From: Minisyncoccota bacterium
GTDB lineage: Bacteria; Patescibacteriota; Minisyncoccia; Phycocordibacterales; UBA9973
DNA length: 57,719 nt
Assembly: GCA_041659205.1 (NCBI GenBank)
Contig: JBAZYS010000005.1
Coordinates: 1-57,719, forward strand
Direction of reading: 5' to 3'
This document shows positions 14,101 to 41,546 of the stretch, piece by piece. Position numbers and translations under genes: made by a program. The first letter of the stretch is position 1; each line of letters begins with the position of its first letter. Under the pieces are notes generated by a model that had not been told where the DNA came from, ran no database searches, and was given only the letters and a program-made list of their open reading frames with translations.

Positions 14101-14129
14101 ATAGCGGGGTAGACCCGCCAAAGGACGGG
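14101..14129 (+). repeat. Duplicated 5' end of tRNA-fMet followed by a GC hairpin
   Basis: ATAGCGGGGTAGA identical at 14101-14113 and 14164-14176, then CCCGCC-AAA-GGACGGG. Confidence 0.75.
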
Positions 14130-14165
14130 CAGGGAATAGGTATCTTAGATTGTTTGTTAAAATAT

Positions 14166-14236
14166 AGCGGGGTAGAGAAGAGGTATCTCGTAAGGCTCAT
14201 AACCTTAAGACTCACGTTCGATTCGTGACCCCGCAA
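14166..14236 (+). tRNA. tRNA-fMet (CAT), initiator type; CCA not encoded
   Basis: Cloverleaf; 1x72 mismatch (A-A), A11:U24, anticodon loop CTCATAA. Confidence 0.88.
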
Positions 14237-14282
14237 CTAGTCGGCAAGTGACATGCCTTATGTCTAATTGTCGAAGATAATG

Positions 14283-14311
14283 TATAATGTCGGCGTAGCT
14301 GTTTTGGTAGA
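14283..14311 (+). repeat. Duplicated 5' fragment of tRNA-Met with CAG-to-GTT change
   Basis: TATAATGTCGGCGTAGCT-GTT-TTGGTAGA versus TATAATGTCGGCGTAGCT-CAG-TTGGTAGA at 14335-14363. Confidence 0.85.
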
Positions 14312-14340
14312 TAACGGTTAAGGTACAACTTTGTTATAAT

Positions 14341-14413
14341 GTCGGCGTAGCTCAGTTGGTAGAGCGGAGGACTCATAAGCCTCAGGTCACAGGTTCAATC
14401 CCTGTCGCCGACA
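14341..14413 (+). tRNA. tRNA-Met elongator or tRNA-Ile2 (CAT)
   Basis: Cloverleaf GTCGGCG/CGCCGAC, anticodon CAT, T-loop TTCAATC; A31-G39 mismatch. Confidence 0.88.
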
Positions 14414-14434
14414 CCCTCAGAAAGAGGAAAATTT

Positions 14435-14506
14435 GCGGCTGTAGCTCAACGGTAGAGCACCCGCCTGTCACGTGGGAGGCCGTGGGGTCAGCACCCATCA
14501 GCCGCG
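14435..14506 (+). tRNA. tRNA-Asp (GTC)
   Basis: GCGGCTG/CAGCCGC acceptor, anticodon loop CTGTCAC, discriminator G; atypical T-loop GTCAGCA. Confidence 0.88.
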
Positions 14507-14676
14507 CAAATATAAAGAACGTCCGCAAGGACGTTTTTTGTTACGTGGCTGAGGAAGTGCGGGGCACTTCTGTATGGGTGCTGACGAGCTTTTGAGATAG
14601 ATTTTGAGCCTGCGAAAAAATATATCCAAAAGGTGTACTGTTCATGTAATGAAAAGCACCCATCAGCCGCGCAAAT
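14490..14676. mobile_element. Mini insert flanked by a 22-bp direct repeat of the tRNA-Asp 3' end (att-like scar)
   Basis: AGCACCCATCAGCCGCGCAAAT at 14490-14511 and 14655-14676; 143-bp hairpin-rich spacer with no ORF. Confidence 0.65.
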
Positions 14677-14717
14677 TAAAAAGAACCATAAAGATGTGGT
14701 TCTTTTTTATTTCTTTA

Positions 14718-18051: not shown

Positions 18052-19448
18052 TGAAAGAAACTAAATTATTTCCTGAGCCAGTTTCGATAAAAAAGTTAAT
18101 TGGTCCAAGTTTTGTTATCCTCGCTCTCGGGCTCGGTTCTGGTGAGGTCATTTTGTGGCCTTATTTGACAGCGAATTATGGTCTCGGTATTGCTTGGGGA
18201 GCAATTCTGGGTATTACTTTTCAGTATTTTATGAATATGGAGATTGAACGTTATGCTCTAGTAAAAGGGGAGAGCGTTTTTGTGGGAATTTATAAATTAT
18301 TTAAACCTGCAGTTTATTGGTTTATTGTTTCGACTTTTCTTGGCTTTGGTTTACCTGGAATCATTGCAGCTTCTGCGAAAGTCATGGCAAGCGTCCTCGG
18401 TATTACAAATTTTAAATGGATAGCAATTTTGTTTTTATTAGTGATTGGGCTTATTCTAAGTATGGGGAAGACGGTGTATGGAATGATGGAGCGTGTTACT
18501 AAAATTATTATTTTAATTGGTGTTCCTTTTATTTTTTTATTAGCTGTTTTTCTAAGTACGAAGACAGACTGGATTGCTTTGTTTAATGGAATAATCGGGA
18601 GAGGGGAAGGATTTAATTTTTTACCTGAGGGTATAAGTATTGCTACTTTTCTCGCTGCTTTTGCTTATTCTGGAGCGGGAGGGAATTTAAATTTAACCCA
18701 GTCTATTTATATTAAAGAAAAAGGTTATGGGATGGGTTTTTATTCACAAAAAATTTCTAGTTTATTTTCTAAAGAAATAGAAAATGAGATTGTCTTAGAT
18801 GGTGTGGATTGTGCTGCGACCCCAGAGGATGTCAGTCGTTTTAAAAAATGGTGGAAGCTTATTAGTTTTGAGCACGCTTTTGTTTTTTGGTTTTTGGGAG
18901 TTATCTCGATGATTTTTCTGATGCTTTTGTCTTATGCGACTACGCATGGACTTCCTGGAAATGCTGAAGGAATTAATTTTGTCATAAATGAAGGAGCGGT
19001 AATTGGAGGAATGGTATTTCCTTTTATTGGTATTTTATTTTTAGTAGTTGTTTCTATTATGTTATTCCAAACACAGTTAGGGGTGATGGATTCCACTTCT
19101 AGGATAATGGCAGAAAATGTAGCAATTAGAAAATTAGACGGACAAGAAAGAGGGAAGATTAATCTTTCAAAAATATATTATTTTTTTGTTTGGGCGCAAG
19201 TTGCTTTCGGAATAATTTTATTTTTGTTCAATATTTACGAACCGAAAACCTTGATAATTATTGGCGCGGTGATTAATGCATTTGCGATGTTTGTACACCT
19301 GGCTTTAGTATTCTGGCTTAATAATAAAAGTCTGCCAAAAGTTTTTCGACCAAACTTGACACGAAAAATTATCATTGGAATTATTTTTATATTTTTTGGT
19401 GTATTTAGCTTTATCGTCTTATTTGATAAGCTTGGTTTTGCAAAATAA
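18051..19448 (+). CDS. Nramp-like (APC superfamily) transporter
   Basis: GPSFVILALGLGSGEVILWP motif; about 11 TMs. Confidence 0.8.
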   Translation: MKETKLFPEPVSIKKLIGPSFVILALGLGSGEVILWPYLTANYGLGIAWGAILGITFQYFMNMEIERYALVKGESVFVGIYKLFKPAVYWFIVSTFLGFGLPGIIAASAKVMASVLGITNFKWIAILFLLVIGLILSMGKTVYGMMERVTKIIILIGVPFIFLLAVFLSTKTDWIALFNGIIGRGEGFNFLPEGISIATFLAAFAYSGAGGNLNLTQSIYIKEKGYGMGFYSQKISSLFSKEIENEIVLDGVDCAATPEDVSRFKKWWKLISFEHAFVFWFLGVISMIFLMLLSYATTHGLPGNAEGINFVINEGAVIGGMVFPFIGILFLVVVSIMLFQTQLGVMDSTSRIMAENVAIRKLDGQERGKINLSKIYYFFVWAQVAFGIILFLFNIYEPKTLIIIGAVINAFAMFVHLALVFWLNNKSLPKVFRPNLTRKIIIGIIFIFFGVFSFIVLFDKLGFAK

Positions 19449-19494
19449 GCCAAAATACACTAGTATGATAAAGGTTTAAATTTTTTAGAAATAA

Positions 19495-19555
19495 GCCGTT
19501 GTAGCTGTTTTGGTAGGTCTTAACGAATGTTTGCCGTTGTAGCTGTTTTGGTAGA
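19495..19555 (+). repeat. Two tandem 5' fragments of tRNA-Thr(GGT) with CAG-to-GTT change
   Basis: GCCGTTGTAGCTGTTTTGGTAG at 19495-19516 and 19533-19554; tRNA starts at 19570. Confidence 0.88.
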
Positions 19556-19569
19556 TAAAAAGAAATAAT

Positions 19570-19642
19570 GCCGTTGTAGCTCAGTTGGTAGAGCACGATA
19601 TTGGTAATATCGAGGTCATCGGTTCAATCCCGATCAACGGCT
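19570..19642 (+). tRNA. tRNA-Thr (GGT)
   Basis: GCCGTTG/CAACGGC acceptor; anticodon arm CGATA-TTGGTAA-TATCG. Confidence 0.93.
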
Positions 19643-19657
19643 CCCGAAATAAAATAT

Positions 19658-19730
19658 GCCGCTGTAGCTCAGGTAGTAGAGCAACGAATTCGTAATTCGT
19701 GGGTCGGATGTGCAAGTCATCCCAGCGGCT
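19658..19730 (+). tRNA. tRNA-Thr (CGT)
   Basis: GCCGCTG/CAGCGGC acceptor; ACGAA-TTCGTAA-TTCGT; atypical T-loop TGCAAGT. Confidence 0.88.
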
Positions 19731-19731
19731 C

Positions 19732-20619
19732 ATGGAAAAAGACATCAACGATATTGATAGGAAAATAGAAGAGCTGGAAGTATCTATGCAGATGCCGGAA
19801 TTTTGGAATGATAAAAATAAAGCCCAAGCAATAATAAAAGAACTCACAGAGTTAAAAGAAAAAAAAGAGGGTGTTGGAAAATATGATAAAGGGAATGCTG
19901 TTGTCACAATAATTTCTGGTGCGGGCGGGGATGATGCAGAAGATTTTTCTGCAATGTTGCTCTCAATGTATTTGAAATATGCAGACAAACATGGCTGGGG
20001 GATTTCTTTTATTCATGAACACAAAAATGAGCATGGAGGATATAGAAATGTTTCTTTTGAAGTTCAGGGCAAAAACTCATACGGTATTTTAAAAAATGAA
20101 GGAGGGGTCCACAGACTTGTACGTATTTCACCCTTTGATGCAAAAAAATTACGGCATACTTCTTTTTCAATGGTAGAAGTTTTGCCTAAATTTTCTAAAC
20201 TTGAAGAAAGAGATTTTGTTATCCCAGAAGCTGATTTGAAGATAGAATATTCTAAGTCAGGCGGTCCTGGAGGGCAAAATGTGAATAAAAGGGAGACGGC
20301 CGTTAGGCTCGTCCATATTCCTACTGGAATTGCAGTACATGCTTCAAATGAGCGTTCTCAAGAGCAAAACCGCGAAAGAGCGATGGCTATTTTACTTGCA
20401 AAAATCTTTAAAAAAGCACAGGAGGACAAGAAAAGCATGGAAGAAAGCTTAAAATCAACTAAAAATACCGAGATAGAATGGGGGAATCAAATTCGTTCAT
20501 ATGTATTGCATCCTTATAAAATGGTAAAAGACCATAGGACTAATATTGAAACTTCAAATGTTGATGCCGTGCTTGATGGGGACTTGGATATTTTTATTGA
20601 GGGAGAGAAAAATTTGTGA
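19732..20619 (+). CDS. prfB: Peptide chain release factor 2 (short form, 295 aa)
   Basis: SPF (RISPFD) and GGQ motifs, WGNQIRSYVLHPY; true start probably ATG 19732 because the longer ORF overlaps the tRNA. Confidence 0.92.
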   Translation: MEKDINDIDRKIEELEVSMQMPEFWNDKNKAQAIIKELTELKEKKEGVGKYDKGNAVVTIISGAGGDDAEDFSAMLLSMYLKYADKHGWGISFIHEHKNEHGGYRNVSFEVQGKNSYGILKNEGGVHRLVRISPFDAKKLRHTSFSMVEVLPKFSKLEERDFVIPEADLKIEYSKSGGPGGQNVNKRETAVRLVHIPTGIAVHASNERSQEQNRERAMAILLAKIFKKAQEDKKSMEESLKSTKNTEIEWGNQIRSYVLHPYKMVKDHRTNIETSNVDAVLDGDLDIFIEGEKNL

Positions 20620-38388: not shown

Positions 38389-38506
38389 GAGATCCTGCTC
38401 GGGATTAATGAAATGATTGGTGTTCGGACTTGTTCCCTCCACCTGTTGGTGTTCGGGACTTACCGTAGCGGCACTGTACTGGAATCTAACCAGTTTCCCC
38501 AATCAA
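38389..38506 (-). ncRNA. Cobalamin riboswitch, compact variant
   Basis: Minus strand TGATTGG-GGAAACTGG-TTAGATT-CCAGT-ACAGTGCCGCTACGGTAA...AAGTCCGAACA-CCAATCA...GAGCAGGATCTC. Confidence 0.88.
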
Positions 38507-38534
38507 TTCTTATAATTTTCAAATGAACTCTCTT

Positions 38535-38562
38535 AGTATATACTTAGATTACATTATGTCAA
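38535..38562 (-). promoter_or_regulatory. Promoter of the riboswitch operon
   Basis: TTGACA-16 bp-TATACT on the minus strand. Confidence 0.6.
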
Positions 38563-41514: not shown

Positions 41515-41546
41515 TCCGCCTCTACGGCGGATCGCCGATGAGGCGA
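41515..41546. repeat. Tandem pair of CGCC-N5-GGCG hairpins
   Basis: TCCGCC-TCTAC-GGCGGA immediately followed by TCGCC-GATGA-GGCGA. Confidence 0.7.

Follow-up and report, generated by a model that had tools for sequence, protein, structure and literature searches.

Tandem, D-loop-edited copies of tRNA 5' ends ahead of tRNA genes in bacteria of the Candidate Phyla Radiation: a possible pre-tRNA leader element

We analysed a stretch of 57,719 nt from a Minisyncoccota bacterium (contig JBAZYS010000005.1 of assembly GCA_041659205.1; "the window" below means this whole stretch), in which the gene for tRNA-Thr(GGT) is preceded by two partial copies of its own 5' end, both with the same short replacement in the D-loop region. 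Copies rewritten in this way stand ahead of many tRNA genes in bacteria of the Candidate Phyla Radiation (CPR, or Patescibacteria), and the unit looks like a conserved, apparently undescribed element and not like random debris. The reading we favour, with a confidence that falls a little short of even, is that the window carries a two-unit array of a CPR/Patescibacteria-wide pre-tRNA leader element that is derived from the tRNA 5' end, edited in the D-loop, selected, co-transcribed with the tRNA and evolving in concert with it, and whose function we can only infer. With cmscan, at the gathering cut-off and at E ≤ 10, only intact tRNAs were found and nothing at 19495-19569 or 14283-14340, and the same holds for ARAGORN; Rfam has no family that matches the unit down to E = 10, and literature searches with the exact motif and with keywords found no paper that describes it. 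A sequence-specific element that extends across the CPR lineages sampled, directly ahead of many tRNAs, has apparently gone unreported, though tRNA genes are among the best-annotated features of genomes.

The window reads ...aaataa GCCGTTGTAGCTGTTTTGGTAG gtcttaacgaatgttt GCCGTTGTAGCTGTTTTGGTAG ataaaaagaaataat GCCGTTGTAGCTCAGTTGGTAGAGC..., such that the fragment GCCGTTGTAGCTGTTTTGGTAG is present twice and the third repeat start is the intact tRNA-Thr(GGT), which opens GCCGTTGTAGCTCAGTTGGTAG (Table 1). Successive repeats begin 38 and 37 nt apart, with unlike spacers of 16 and 15 nt between them (repeat finder), as an initial annotation of this DNA had described. About 5 kb upstream, GTCGGCGTAGCTGTTTTGGTAG (14289-14310) lies ahead of tRNA-Met(CAT) within TATAATGTCGGCGTAGCTGTTTTGGTAGA (14283-14311), 52 nt before TATAATGTCGGCGTAGCTCAGTTGGTAGA, the start of that tRNA, and the sole difference between the two is a contiguous CAG to GTT change. 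The initial annotation had noticed the same change at both loci, and we confirm it; relatives widen the changed block to five bases, nt 13-17. The window has three sites for the 16-mer GTAGCTGTTTTGGTAG, where 100 dinucleotide-preserving shuffles give an expectation of 0.00, and no further site even when two mismatches are allowed.

Table 1. Features of the tRNA-Thr and tRNA-Met loci of the window.
Feature	Position	Strand	Description
Sigma-70-like promoter, tRNA-Thr operon	19438..19466	+	-35 TTGCAA 19438-19443, 17-nt spacer, -10 TAGTAT 19461-19466; consensus match (promoter scan)
Fragment F1	19495..19516	+	tRNA-Thr nt 1-12, GTTTT, nt 18-22
Spacer S1	19517..19532	+	gtcttaacgaatgttt, GTC class (sequence)
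Fragment F2	19533..19554	+	same sequence as F1
Spacer S2	19555..19569	+	ataaaaagaaataat (sequence)
Intact tRNA-Thr(GGT)	19570..19644	+	source and partner of F1 and F2; ARAGORN; Rfam tRNA 69.9 bits
tRNA-Thr(CGT)	19658..19731	+	A18/G55 type, 13 nt past tRNA-Thr(GGT), without a fragment of its own; ARAGORN, Rfam
Met-locus fragment	14283..14310	+	leader copy TATAAT 14283-14288; tRNA-Met nt 1-12, GTTTT, nt 18-22 at 14289-14310
Met-locus spacer	14311..14340	+	ataacggttaaggtacaactttgttataat; ends in TATAAT, as found ahead of the fragment
Intact tRNA-Met(CAT)	14341..14413	+	Rfam 68.8 bits; ARAGORN gives 14340-14416
Hairpin-style 5' copy, other tRNA-Met	14101..14145	+	ATAGCGGGGTAGA, inserted GC-rich CCCGCCAAAGGACGGGC, AGGGAATAGGTATCT; ahead of tRNA-Met 14166-14237

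Relatives were collected from one genome per species for 185,579 species, using the 16-mer as the query (at least 120 loci matched), from a viral collection searched with the motif (26 matches), and from a metagenome scan that was free of the motif and anchored on the acceptor, requiring a copy of nt 1-10 of a GCCGWKG-type tRNA 22-52 nt ahead of the real gene. These relatives, which are genome contigs or loci of metagenome-assembled genomes (MAGs) and metagenome contigs, are numbered from L001 onward, with metagenome loci at L147-L266. Counts of unit anatomy refer to 67 unique units, in which identity over nt 1-9 is imposed by the search design and identity over nt 10-12 is observed. Each unit consists of the tRNA's own nt 1-12, GTTTT (rarely GTCTT), the tRNA's own nt 18-22, (G)T, and a spacer of at least 11 nt; nt 1-12 and nt 18-22 match the downstream tRNA. 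Position 13 is G in 66/67 units where the tRNA has C, position 14 is T in 65/67 where the tRNA has A, position 15 is T in 59/67 or C in 8/67 where the tRNA has G, and positions 16-17 are T. Past the tRNA-derived part, the 67 units have G (41), A (15) or T (11) at position 23, mostly T (54/67) at position 24 and A or C at position 25, and the sequence beyond is variable and A-rich. Unit length, and hence array period, is 33-41 nt, with a mode of 37-38. The 18-nt core of the unit is GTAGCTGTTTTGGTAGGT; its conserved form, GTAGCT-GTTTTG-GTAGGT, has GTAGNT twice in direct orientation at a distance of 12 nt, an arrangement that the tRNA itself (GTAGCT-CAGTTG-GTAGAG) only approximates.

GTTTT replaces a variety of native pentamers, namely CAGTT, CAGCT (L017, L179), CAGTC (L057, L107), CAGAT (L063, L092), CAGGT (L204) and, in tRNA-Asp, CAACT (L204, L151), and the rewritten block is therefore five bases long (nt 13-17), not three. 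An origin of GTTTT by deletion of CA and duplication of TT fails for tRNAs with CAGCT, CAGAT or CAACT. The bases that follow the block belong to the local tRNA: the two of 67 units that have A at position 18 sit exactly at the only two A18 tRNAs (Thr-CGT of L174 and Thr-GGT of L204; Fisher p ~5e-4, calculated by hand from the counts), and copies of Asp and Met tRNAs with long D-loops read GGCTAG or GGTTAG. The T-loop has G55 in 4/4 A18 tRNAs and U55 in 149/149 G18 tRNAs with a detected T-loop. Judging from this distribution, A18-G55 and G18-U55 are states of a covarying 18-55 tertiary pair, and position 18 of the copy therefore tracks the tertiary pair of its tRNA. The tRNA-Thr type with the D-loop CAGGTAGTAG or CAGCTAGTAG (A18) has the T-loop GTGCAA and not GTTCRA (window 19658-19731; L174, L204, L256).

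The core motif occurs at least 137 times in at least 120 genome loci and the window; at least 48 of these occurrences precede a same-strand tRNA by no more than 200 nt. The tRNA-linked occurrences come from at least 34 loci, comprising 28 MAGs labelled as CPR/Patescibacteria (under the names Saccharibacteria, Paceibacterota/Paceibacteria, Parcubacteria, Nomurabacteria, Kaiserbacteria, Zambryskiibacteriota, Minisyncoccia and Patescibacteria) and six MAGs without a taxon label; among the matches listed, no tRNA-linked unit comes from any other named phylum. The rest of the matches listed are copies at contig ends in CPR or unlabelled MAGs (e.g. L023, L031, L043, L085, L093, L103), or belong to other phyla, in which the motif lies away from tRNAs and mostly in coding DNA and is read as a chance match. 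None of the 26 matches in the viral collection adjoins a tRNA, and we read these as chance matches too. Within the collections searched, the unit is restricted to CPR bacteria. The tRNAs that carry it are Thr (GGT, CGT, TGT), Phe, Lys, Met, Asn, Ala, Val, Ile(TAT) and Asp, and GTTTT predominates in both Saccharibacteria and Paceibacteria. The initial annotation had judged independent drift unlikely, and this is borne out by the same pentamer at the same tRNA position ahead of at least 11 isoacceptors in dozens of CPR genomes. The initial annotation had named absence of the motif from other tRNA loci and from relatives as what would refute its idea, and the motif is present in both. In the acceptor-anchored scan, which yielded 110 unique fragments, the bases after GTAG were CTGTTTTGGTAG in 19 and CTGTCTTGGTAG in 8 (the top classes) and TTGTTTTGGTAG in 3, and GTTTT-type classes plus single variants made up about one third of the fragments.

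Two further observations concern these matches. Only one non-CPR match among those listed has a tRNA-like context, in a Sphingobacteriales MAG (L001, 527-600, minus strand), where the 16-mer is followed by GAGTAGCTGACGCTTAATCAG and the T-arm-like GGGTTCGAGTCC; ARAGORN gives no tRNA there, and Rfam gives only a weak, sub-threshold mascRNA-like match of 20 bits. Many CPR matches lie within ~100 nt of a contig end (L023, L031, L038, L043, L056, L086, L103) or beside runs of N (L026, L063), and the arrays may therefore break or collapse short-read assemblies, in which case copy numbers in MAGs would be underestimates.

The units share the orientation of the tRNA and sit either between a promoter-like site and the tRNA or between adjoining tRNAs on the same strand (window Met locus, L089, L174, L185, L204). 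The best sigma-70-like site precedes the first copy by 7-50 nt at most loci, and in the window the Thr promoter-like site ends 28 nt ahead of the first fragment; the promoter scan found no -35/-10 pair inside the 33-41-nt units. The copies would therefore be part of the precursor transcript. Two candidate explanations were rejected on the same scan: a promoter inside the unit, since there is no -35/-10 pair, TTGGTA is wrongly spaced as a -35 and the promoter-like sites stand ahead of the first copy, and tandem duplication of a promoter, since the units hold no promoter-like pair and the site stands ahead of the first copy. An intrinsic terminator or attenuator was likewise rejected, there being no hairpin ahead of a U-run. 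The distance from fragment to gene is 15-16 nt in the window Thr array, 30 nt at the window Met locus and 11-60 nt in relatives.

Arrays hold between one and five copies (five in L181, four in L179 and L218). Neighbouring units differ at 0/351 positions in nt 10-22 and at 4/449 in spacers, and L185 and L218 have three and four copies, respectively, between otherwise identical flanks, which argues that arrays expand and contract quickly. The window array is among the few heterogeneous ones, having two unlike spacers. The order tRNA-Thr, release factor, ftsE, ftsX, pyrG recurs in L012 (Candidatus Paceibacterota) and L054 (Candidatus Nomurabacteria). By tblastn, FtsE is 88-89% and FtsX 81-88% identical between the window and L012, L054 and L207 (88-90% and 81-88% when L204 and L256 are added), and PyrG is 83-85% identical in L012 and L054. 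The DNA is therefore that of a Paceibacteria-type member of the CPR. In an alignment of the window with L207, L012, L054, L090 and L248 (the last of which, with L090, was included on the promoter-like block or the unit, synteny being shown for L012, L054 and L207), the parts kept are the promoter-like block, the 22-mer and a spacer start GTCGTT(T)ACGA, whereas the segment between the -10 element and the first copy has diverged to 14-30 nt of differing sequence. The promoter-like block TTGCAAAATAAGCnAAAATAAACTAGTAT is kept in L012, L054, L090 and L207. F1 is orthologous to the lone fragment of L012, L054 and L207 and to one copy in L248, and S1 aligns with gtcgttacgaatgtaa (L248) and gtcgtttacgag... 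(L012, L054). S2 is not found in L012, L054 or L207; its first four nt, ATAA, are common to the Met-locus spacer, and its 3' part is a second agaaataa, the octamer found ahead of F1. On this comparison F1-S1 is the ortholog of the relatives' unit and F2-S2 an extra unit with a spacer ending in the agaaataa that also stands upstream of F1.

Similar copying of leader sequence is seen elsewhere. In L030 and L072, both at tRNA-Phe, the 5' part of the spacer, GTATACGCAA, is common to the two and the 3' part equals each genome's own upstream leader, which implies that gene conversion between copy and gene has covered the stretch from the proximal leader to nt 12. Spacers whose 3' part copies the local leader are window S2, the window Met spacer and those of L030, L072, L179 and L210; at most loci the spacer is unrelated to the upstream flank. 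Some genomes also share sequence between loci: GGTAGATAA is found at window Met and at Thr-F2, GGTAGGTCGTTA at L076 Lys and at L090 Thr (two loci of one MAG), and the rare GTCTT together with TAATGCA at Thr-GGT and Thr-CGT of L184; GTCTT is present at each of the two loci of L250, and in MAG nzgw487 GTCGTTA is common to different tRNA loci. Most multi-locus genomes have no common spacer starts, and the comparison of similarity within and between genomes gives a nominal p = 0.049 that is inflated by double-counted fragments.

We propose that the element would have originated by partial tandem duplication of the tRNA 5' end, that arrays would then grow and shrink by slippage or unequal recombination, that gene conversion with the real gene would hold nt 1-12 and the proximal leader identical, and that purifying selection would hold the pentamer and nt 18-24. 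With purifying selection on the pentamer and nt 18-24, the copy would be a functional cis element and not a scar. Retention by selection is suggested because a direct repeat of 12-22 nt that lies 15 nt from its twin should otherwise be lost, and because a neutral copy would not be expected to hold the same five bases in Saccharibacteria, Paceibacteria and eleven isoacceptors. A selected RNA whose D-stem is broken, the alternative that the initial annotation had raised, agrees with the data better than a mobile element does. If the reading holds, this would be a clean natural case of concerted evolution around a protected island of 5 nt.

As to function, each copy in the transcript may act as an alternative 5' partner for the 3' acceptor strand of the tRNA, and may offer G18G19 (or A18) for contact with the T-loop; without C13, A14 and R15, the copy cannot build a D-arm. 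RNAalifold, applied to 32 diverse units, predicts pairing of copy nt 1-7 with the tRNA 3' strand and no conserved leader structure besides this acceptor pairing. In constrained ensembles, pairing with the copy is ~2.7 kcal/mol more favourable than the true pairing; we take these predictions to mean that copy pairing is about as good energetically as true pairing. With the copy paired, the precursor would become a pseudo-substrate without a D-arm, open to RNase P cleavage 5' of each copy, such that the leader would be removed in ~37-nt steps, small RNAs starting with the first 12 bases of the tRNA would be freed, and tRNA maturation might be buffered or timed by the stepwise removal. We offer this scheme of copy-paired pseudo-substrates, stepwise leader removal by RNase P and small RNAs with low confidence, as a model that is considerably less likely to be right than wrong. 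Equally tentative is a broader form of it, in which CPR bacteria encode tRNA-5'-mimic leader RNAs, consisting of tandem units of ~34-38 nt (acceptor 5' strand, U-rich linker and an elbow-forming G18G19), that RNase P would release and that might serve as ligands, acting as a decoy or regulator for a factor that recognises particular tRNAs by their acceptor and D-loop side, or as a maturation timer. If true, this would be a new class of tRNA-derived regulatory RNA, working in cis or in trans and kept by concerted evolution with its tRNA, and streamlined episymbionts with single-copy tRNA genes would have gained an extra layer of pre-tRNA processing or regulation made from the tRNA 5' end.

The putative copy-paired conformer resembles substrates known from other systems. 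An acceptor stem and T-arm suffice for RNase P, as in minihelices and external guide sequences. Like D-arm-less mitochondrial tRNAs, the conformer would combine a 5' strand, a short unstructured connector and an elbow; the difference is that here the pseudo-5' strand lies in cis, in tandem and ahead of a complete tRNA, and that cleavage is predicted.

Several results weigh against a selected leader element. The unit is present at some loci and not at others: it is missing ahead of Thr-GGT in L107, L109, L089 and L085 and ahead of Met at several loci, a pattern that also fits a dispensable or selfish repeat. The pentamer does not behave as a device against misfolding, since it shifts the predicted misfolding by only +0.44 kcal/mol (p = 0.09). 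Nor is a hairpin between fragment and spacer (U-tract with A-rich spacer, G13 with C) supported, because the units have a mean minimum free energy of -3.36, shuffles one of -3.32, and control leaders are no different; such a hairpin is present in few loci only (L183, L018, L080, L016). The window holds no complement of the motif, other than its own antisense, that could be a partner in trans, and GTTTT is a poor mimic of the junction between leader and +1, tRNA leaders ending in ATAT and only 2/339 ending in GTTTT. No test result explains the need for GTTTT specifically. The tracking of A18 could stem from gene conversion instead of a functional contact. Finally, most sampling used patterns that hold the motif or the acceptor, and the estimates of conservation are therefore partly biased.

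The alternative that survives best, to which we give a small but real share of belief, is that a motif has been spreading without function: one ancestral edited fragment would have passed from one tRNA locus to another through ectopic gene conversion or two-step template switching, anchored on the GTAGCT and GGTAG common to these tRNAs, with the 3' part of the spacer taken from the local leader, and the survivors would be those duplications that bear a patch disabling the D-loop. This would account for the identical pentamer at Thr (three anticodons), Phe, Lys, Met, Asn, Ala, Val, Ile and Asp, for the bases past the tRNA-derived part that loci share within genomes (window GGTAGATAA; L076/L090 GGTAGGTCGTTA; L184; L250), for the spacer 3' parts that copy the local leader (window S2, Met spacer, L030, L072), and for patchy gain and loss. 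It also bears on the common donor motif that the initial annotation had postulated, a claim that survives in part. In its favour, some genomes share bases past the tRNA-derived part between loci (ATAA in the window; GTCGTTA in nzgw487; GTCTT plus TAATGCA in L184), but a fixed donor CTGTTTTGGTAG is not what is inserted, because the bases either side of the pentamer follow the local tRNA (A18; GGCTAG/GGTTAG). With nt 18-22 local in this way (AGTAG, GGCTAG, GGTTAG), a transferred patch would be only 5 nt long, flanked by 6 and 2-5 nt of identity. Moreover, most multi-locus genomes have no common spacer starts and the similarity test is weak, the units are inherited vertically with lineage-specific spacers, neither a donor nor an enzyme was found in the loci searched, and no viral match is tRNA-linked. 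Drift without selection should also give lineage-specific pentamers, yet GTTTT dominates in Saccharibacteria and in Paceibacteria.

The donor had been conceived as part of a tRNA-5'-targeting element that acts repeatedly and leaves a fragment each time. We found no full-length element, bounded by the motif and bearing a recombinase, nuclease or reverse transcriptase gene, in the 120 genome, 120 metagenome and 26 viral loci examined; indeed nothing there is bounded by the motif, the CPR occurrences being units of 33-76 nt directly ahead of a tRNA or at contig ends. Nor do the arrays record repeated events of such an element: the units descend vertically, each lineage having its own spacers, and it is tandem duplication that lengthens the arrays. 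With no autonomous mobile element found, the earlier idea is only partly supported.

Somewhat less probable than a spreading motif, in our view, is that the copies are neutral debris. Slippage would duplicate the 5' ends of highly transcribed tRNA genes, copies capable of forming a D-arm would be purged while disabled ones linger, and GTTTT would be a frozen accident spread by array expansion. The volatility of the arrays and the empty site in L107 (GatA 57% identical to that of the window, with a similar promoter-like site), which has no unit at Thr-GGT and three copies at Met, are consistent with this. So are 5' copies in other contigs that are disabled by other means than GTTTT, which the acceptor-anchored metagenome scan also detected. 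In one sister class a GC-rich hairpin (TCCGCC-loop-GGCGGA, TCCTCC..GGAGGA or GCCCCGCC..GGCGGGG) is inserted at copy nt 10-19; in another, a segment downstream is complementary to CTCAGTTGG and sequesters it; and a few copies are plain, unedited partial duplications in which the leader is copied too. The window has an example of the first at the tRNA-Met gene that starts at 14166, where AGGGAATAGGTATCT matches tRNA-Met nt 9-25 with two changes, and with the Thr(GGT), Met(14341) and Met(14166) copies, three of the six window tRNAs therefore have an upstream 5' copy. L189 links the classes, reading nt 1-12, TCCGCCAGTTGGCGGA, TTGGTAG and TTAAAC..., so that the hairpin occupies exactly the place of GTT in the window units. 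The common denominator of the 5' copies is a D-loop region that is unable to act as a D-arm.

Against neutral debris, a frozen accident cannot account for one pentamer at many unrelated tRNA loci in place of varied native pentamers, nt 13-24 are invariant where the adjoining leader has diverged, and a direct repeat of 12-22 nt so close to its twin should vanish quickly from streamlined genomes unless retained. Differences between copy and parent are not random and lineage-specific, as expected of plain duplication debris, but confined to nt 13-17, with the same pentamer across tRNA families and lineages.

Hairpin-insert 5' copies are frequent in metagenome contigs L147-L266 (e.g. L182, L189, L187, L173, L213); at least 12 contigs keep the arrangement ahead of tRNA-Phe, and tandem arrays of it occur as well (L162, L194). 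Stems of the TCCGCC/GGCGGA type also occur away from tRNAs, including at 41515-41531 of the window. REP (repetitive extragenic palindromic) elements, which are associated with RAYT transposases, have a GTAG head and a GC-rich palindrome. The sister class in other contigs is similar, with GTAG(CT) followed by the TCCGCC-loop-GGCGGA palindrome, whereas the GTTTT units, those of the window included, have no palindrome, and hairpin energies of the units equal those of shuffles and control leaders. No RAYT gene was seen, though no search aimed at one was made.

We consider it improbable that the unit is a binding site, in DNA or RNA, for a CPR-specific protein that co-regulates the transcription or processing of a set of tRNAs. 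The edit and the GT after GGTAG do make a better direct repeat, GTAGCT-GTTTTG-GTAGGT, with a T-rich spacer, conservation lies exactly over nt 7-24 and includes G23 (41/67) and T24 (54/67), which are not derived from the tRNA, and a sequence-specific motif at many tRNA loci, located between promoter-like site and gene, is reminiscent of the operators of a regulon. However, we know of no candidate factor, the array periods (33-41 nt, mode 37-38) do not correspond to whole helical turns, arrays between tRNAs within operons would be odd for an operator, and the acceptor part is still identical to the tRNA although the putative site does not include it.

A CRISPR-like mini-array or the repeat array of a type III antitoxin (ToxI-like) is very improbable: the direct repeats are regular, the period of 34-38 nt is near the 36-nt ToxI unit and the two window spacers differ, but spacers are only 15-16 nt long and are identical in most arrays elsewhere, the 22-nt repeat is a tRNA 5' end, the genes downstream are tRNA-Thr(GGT), tRNA-Thr(CGT), release factor, ftsE, ftsX and pyrG, no cas or toxN-like gene was found by Pfam in the ten flanking ORFs (open reading frames) tested, and there is no Rfam match. 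CRISPR arrays have repeats of ~23-50 nt and unique spacers of similar or greater length. ToxI arrays consist of 36-nt repeats that ToxN cuts into units. The units described here are, like these, tandem RNA units of ~36 nt that an endonuclease may cut (a resemblance of possible working only, RNase P being the putative enzyme here); ToxI arrays differ in having a ToxN/AbiQ-type gene directly downstream, where the window has tRNAs and a release factor, and here the units are tRNA-derived.

Two other known kinds of tRNA fragment invite comparison with the leader units. Pseudo-tRNAs of organelles that arise by tandem duplication and random loss, and the 3' repeat units of the Escherichia coli tyrT operon, are local partial duplications of a tRNA locus. 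They share with the units local duplication, changes in copy number by unequal exchange, and co-transcription with the tRNA; they differ in decaying randomly or being specific to one locus, whereas here one substitution is common to many tRNA families and to Saccharibacteria, Paceibacteria and other CPR bacteria. Fragments at the attachment (att) sites of prophages and islands are exact 3' parts of tRNAs (anticodon loop, T-loop or 3' end), running from the crossover site to the 3' end, unedited, and lie kilobases off across an integrase-bearing element (cf. PMC9897764). As with these, the units are partial copies near an intact gene, at tRNA hot spots, where several fragments may accumulate. 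The units differ in comprising 5' nt 1-22 with a fixed 5-nt rewrite, 15-60 nt ahead of the gene and with no intervening element. Arrays of this kind can confuse both tRNA annotation and att-site prediction in CPR MAGs.

The window also contains a fragment of classical appearance. The 3' end of tRNA-Asp, AGCACCCATCAGCCGCGCAAAT (14490-14516), recurs 165 nt downstream (14655-14681), with a terminator-like hairpin after each copy, and a 12-nt inverted copy, ATGGGTGCTGAC (14574-14585), lies between the two. By its sequence, this 3' repeat resembles an att-type fragment of the classical kind or the outcome of a local rearrangement.

The window as a whole has ~35% GC and contains a 5S rRNA, gatA, six tRNAs, a release factor gene, ftsE, ftsX, pyrG and a cobalamin riboswitch; the ten flanking ORFs examined with Pfam include gatA, surface proteins, the release factor, ftsE, ftsX and pyrG. 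Exact look-ups of two neighbouring proteins, made in search of strain variants of this genome, had no match on record. The 5S rRNA is represented by its 3' part at 1-85, truncated by the window edge, and the riboswitch lies at 38398-38548 on the minus strand (38.3 bits). The release-factor gene beside the array (19734-20619) is 41-50% identical by tblastn to the syntenic genes of L012, L054, L207 and L256, against 81-90% for its neighbours FtsE, FtsX and PyrG in relatives. Its ORF is short (~295-306 aa), and the PCRF domain aligns to profile positions 95-194 only.

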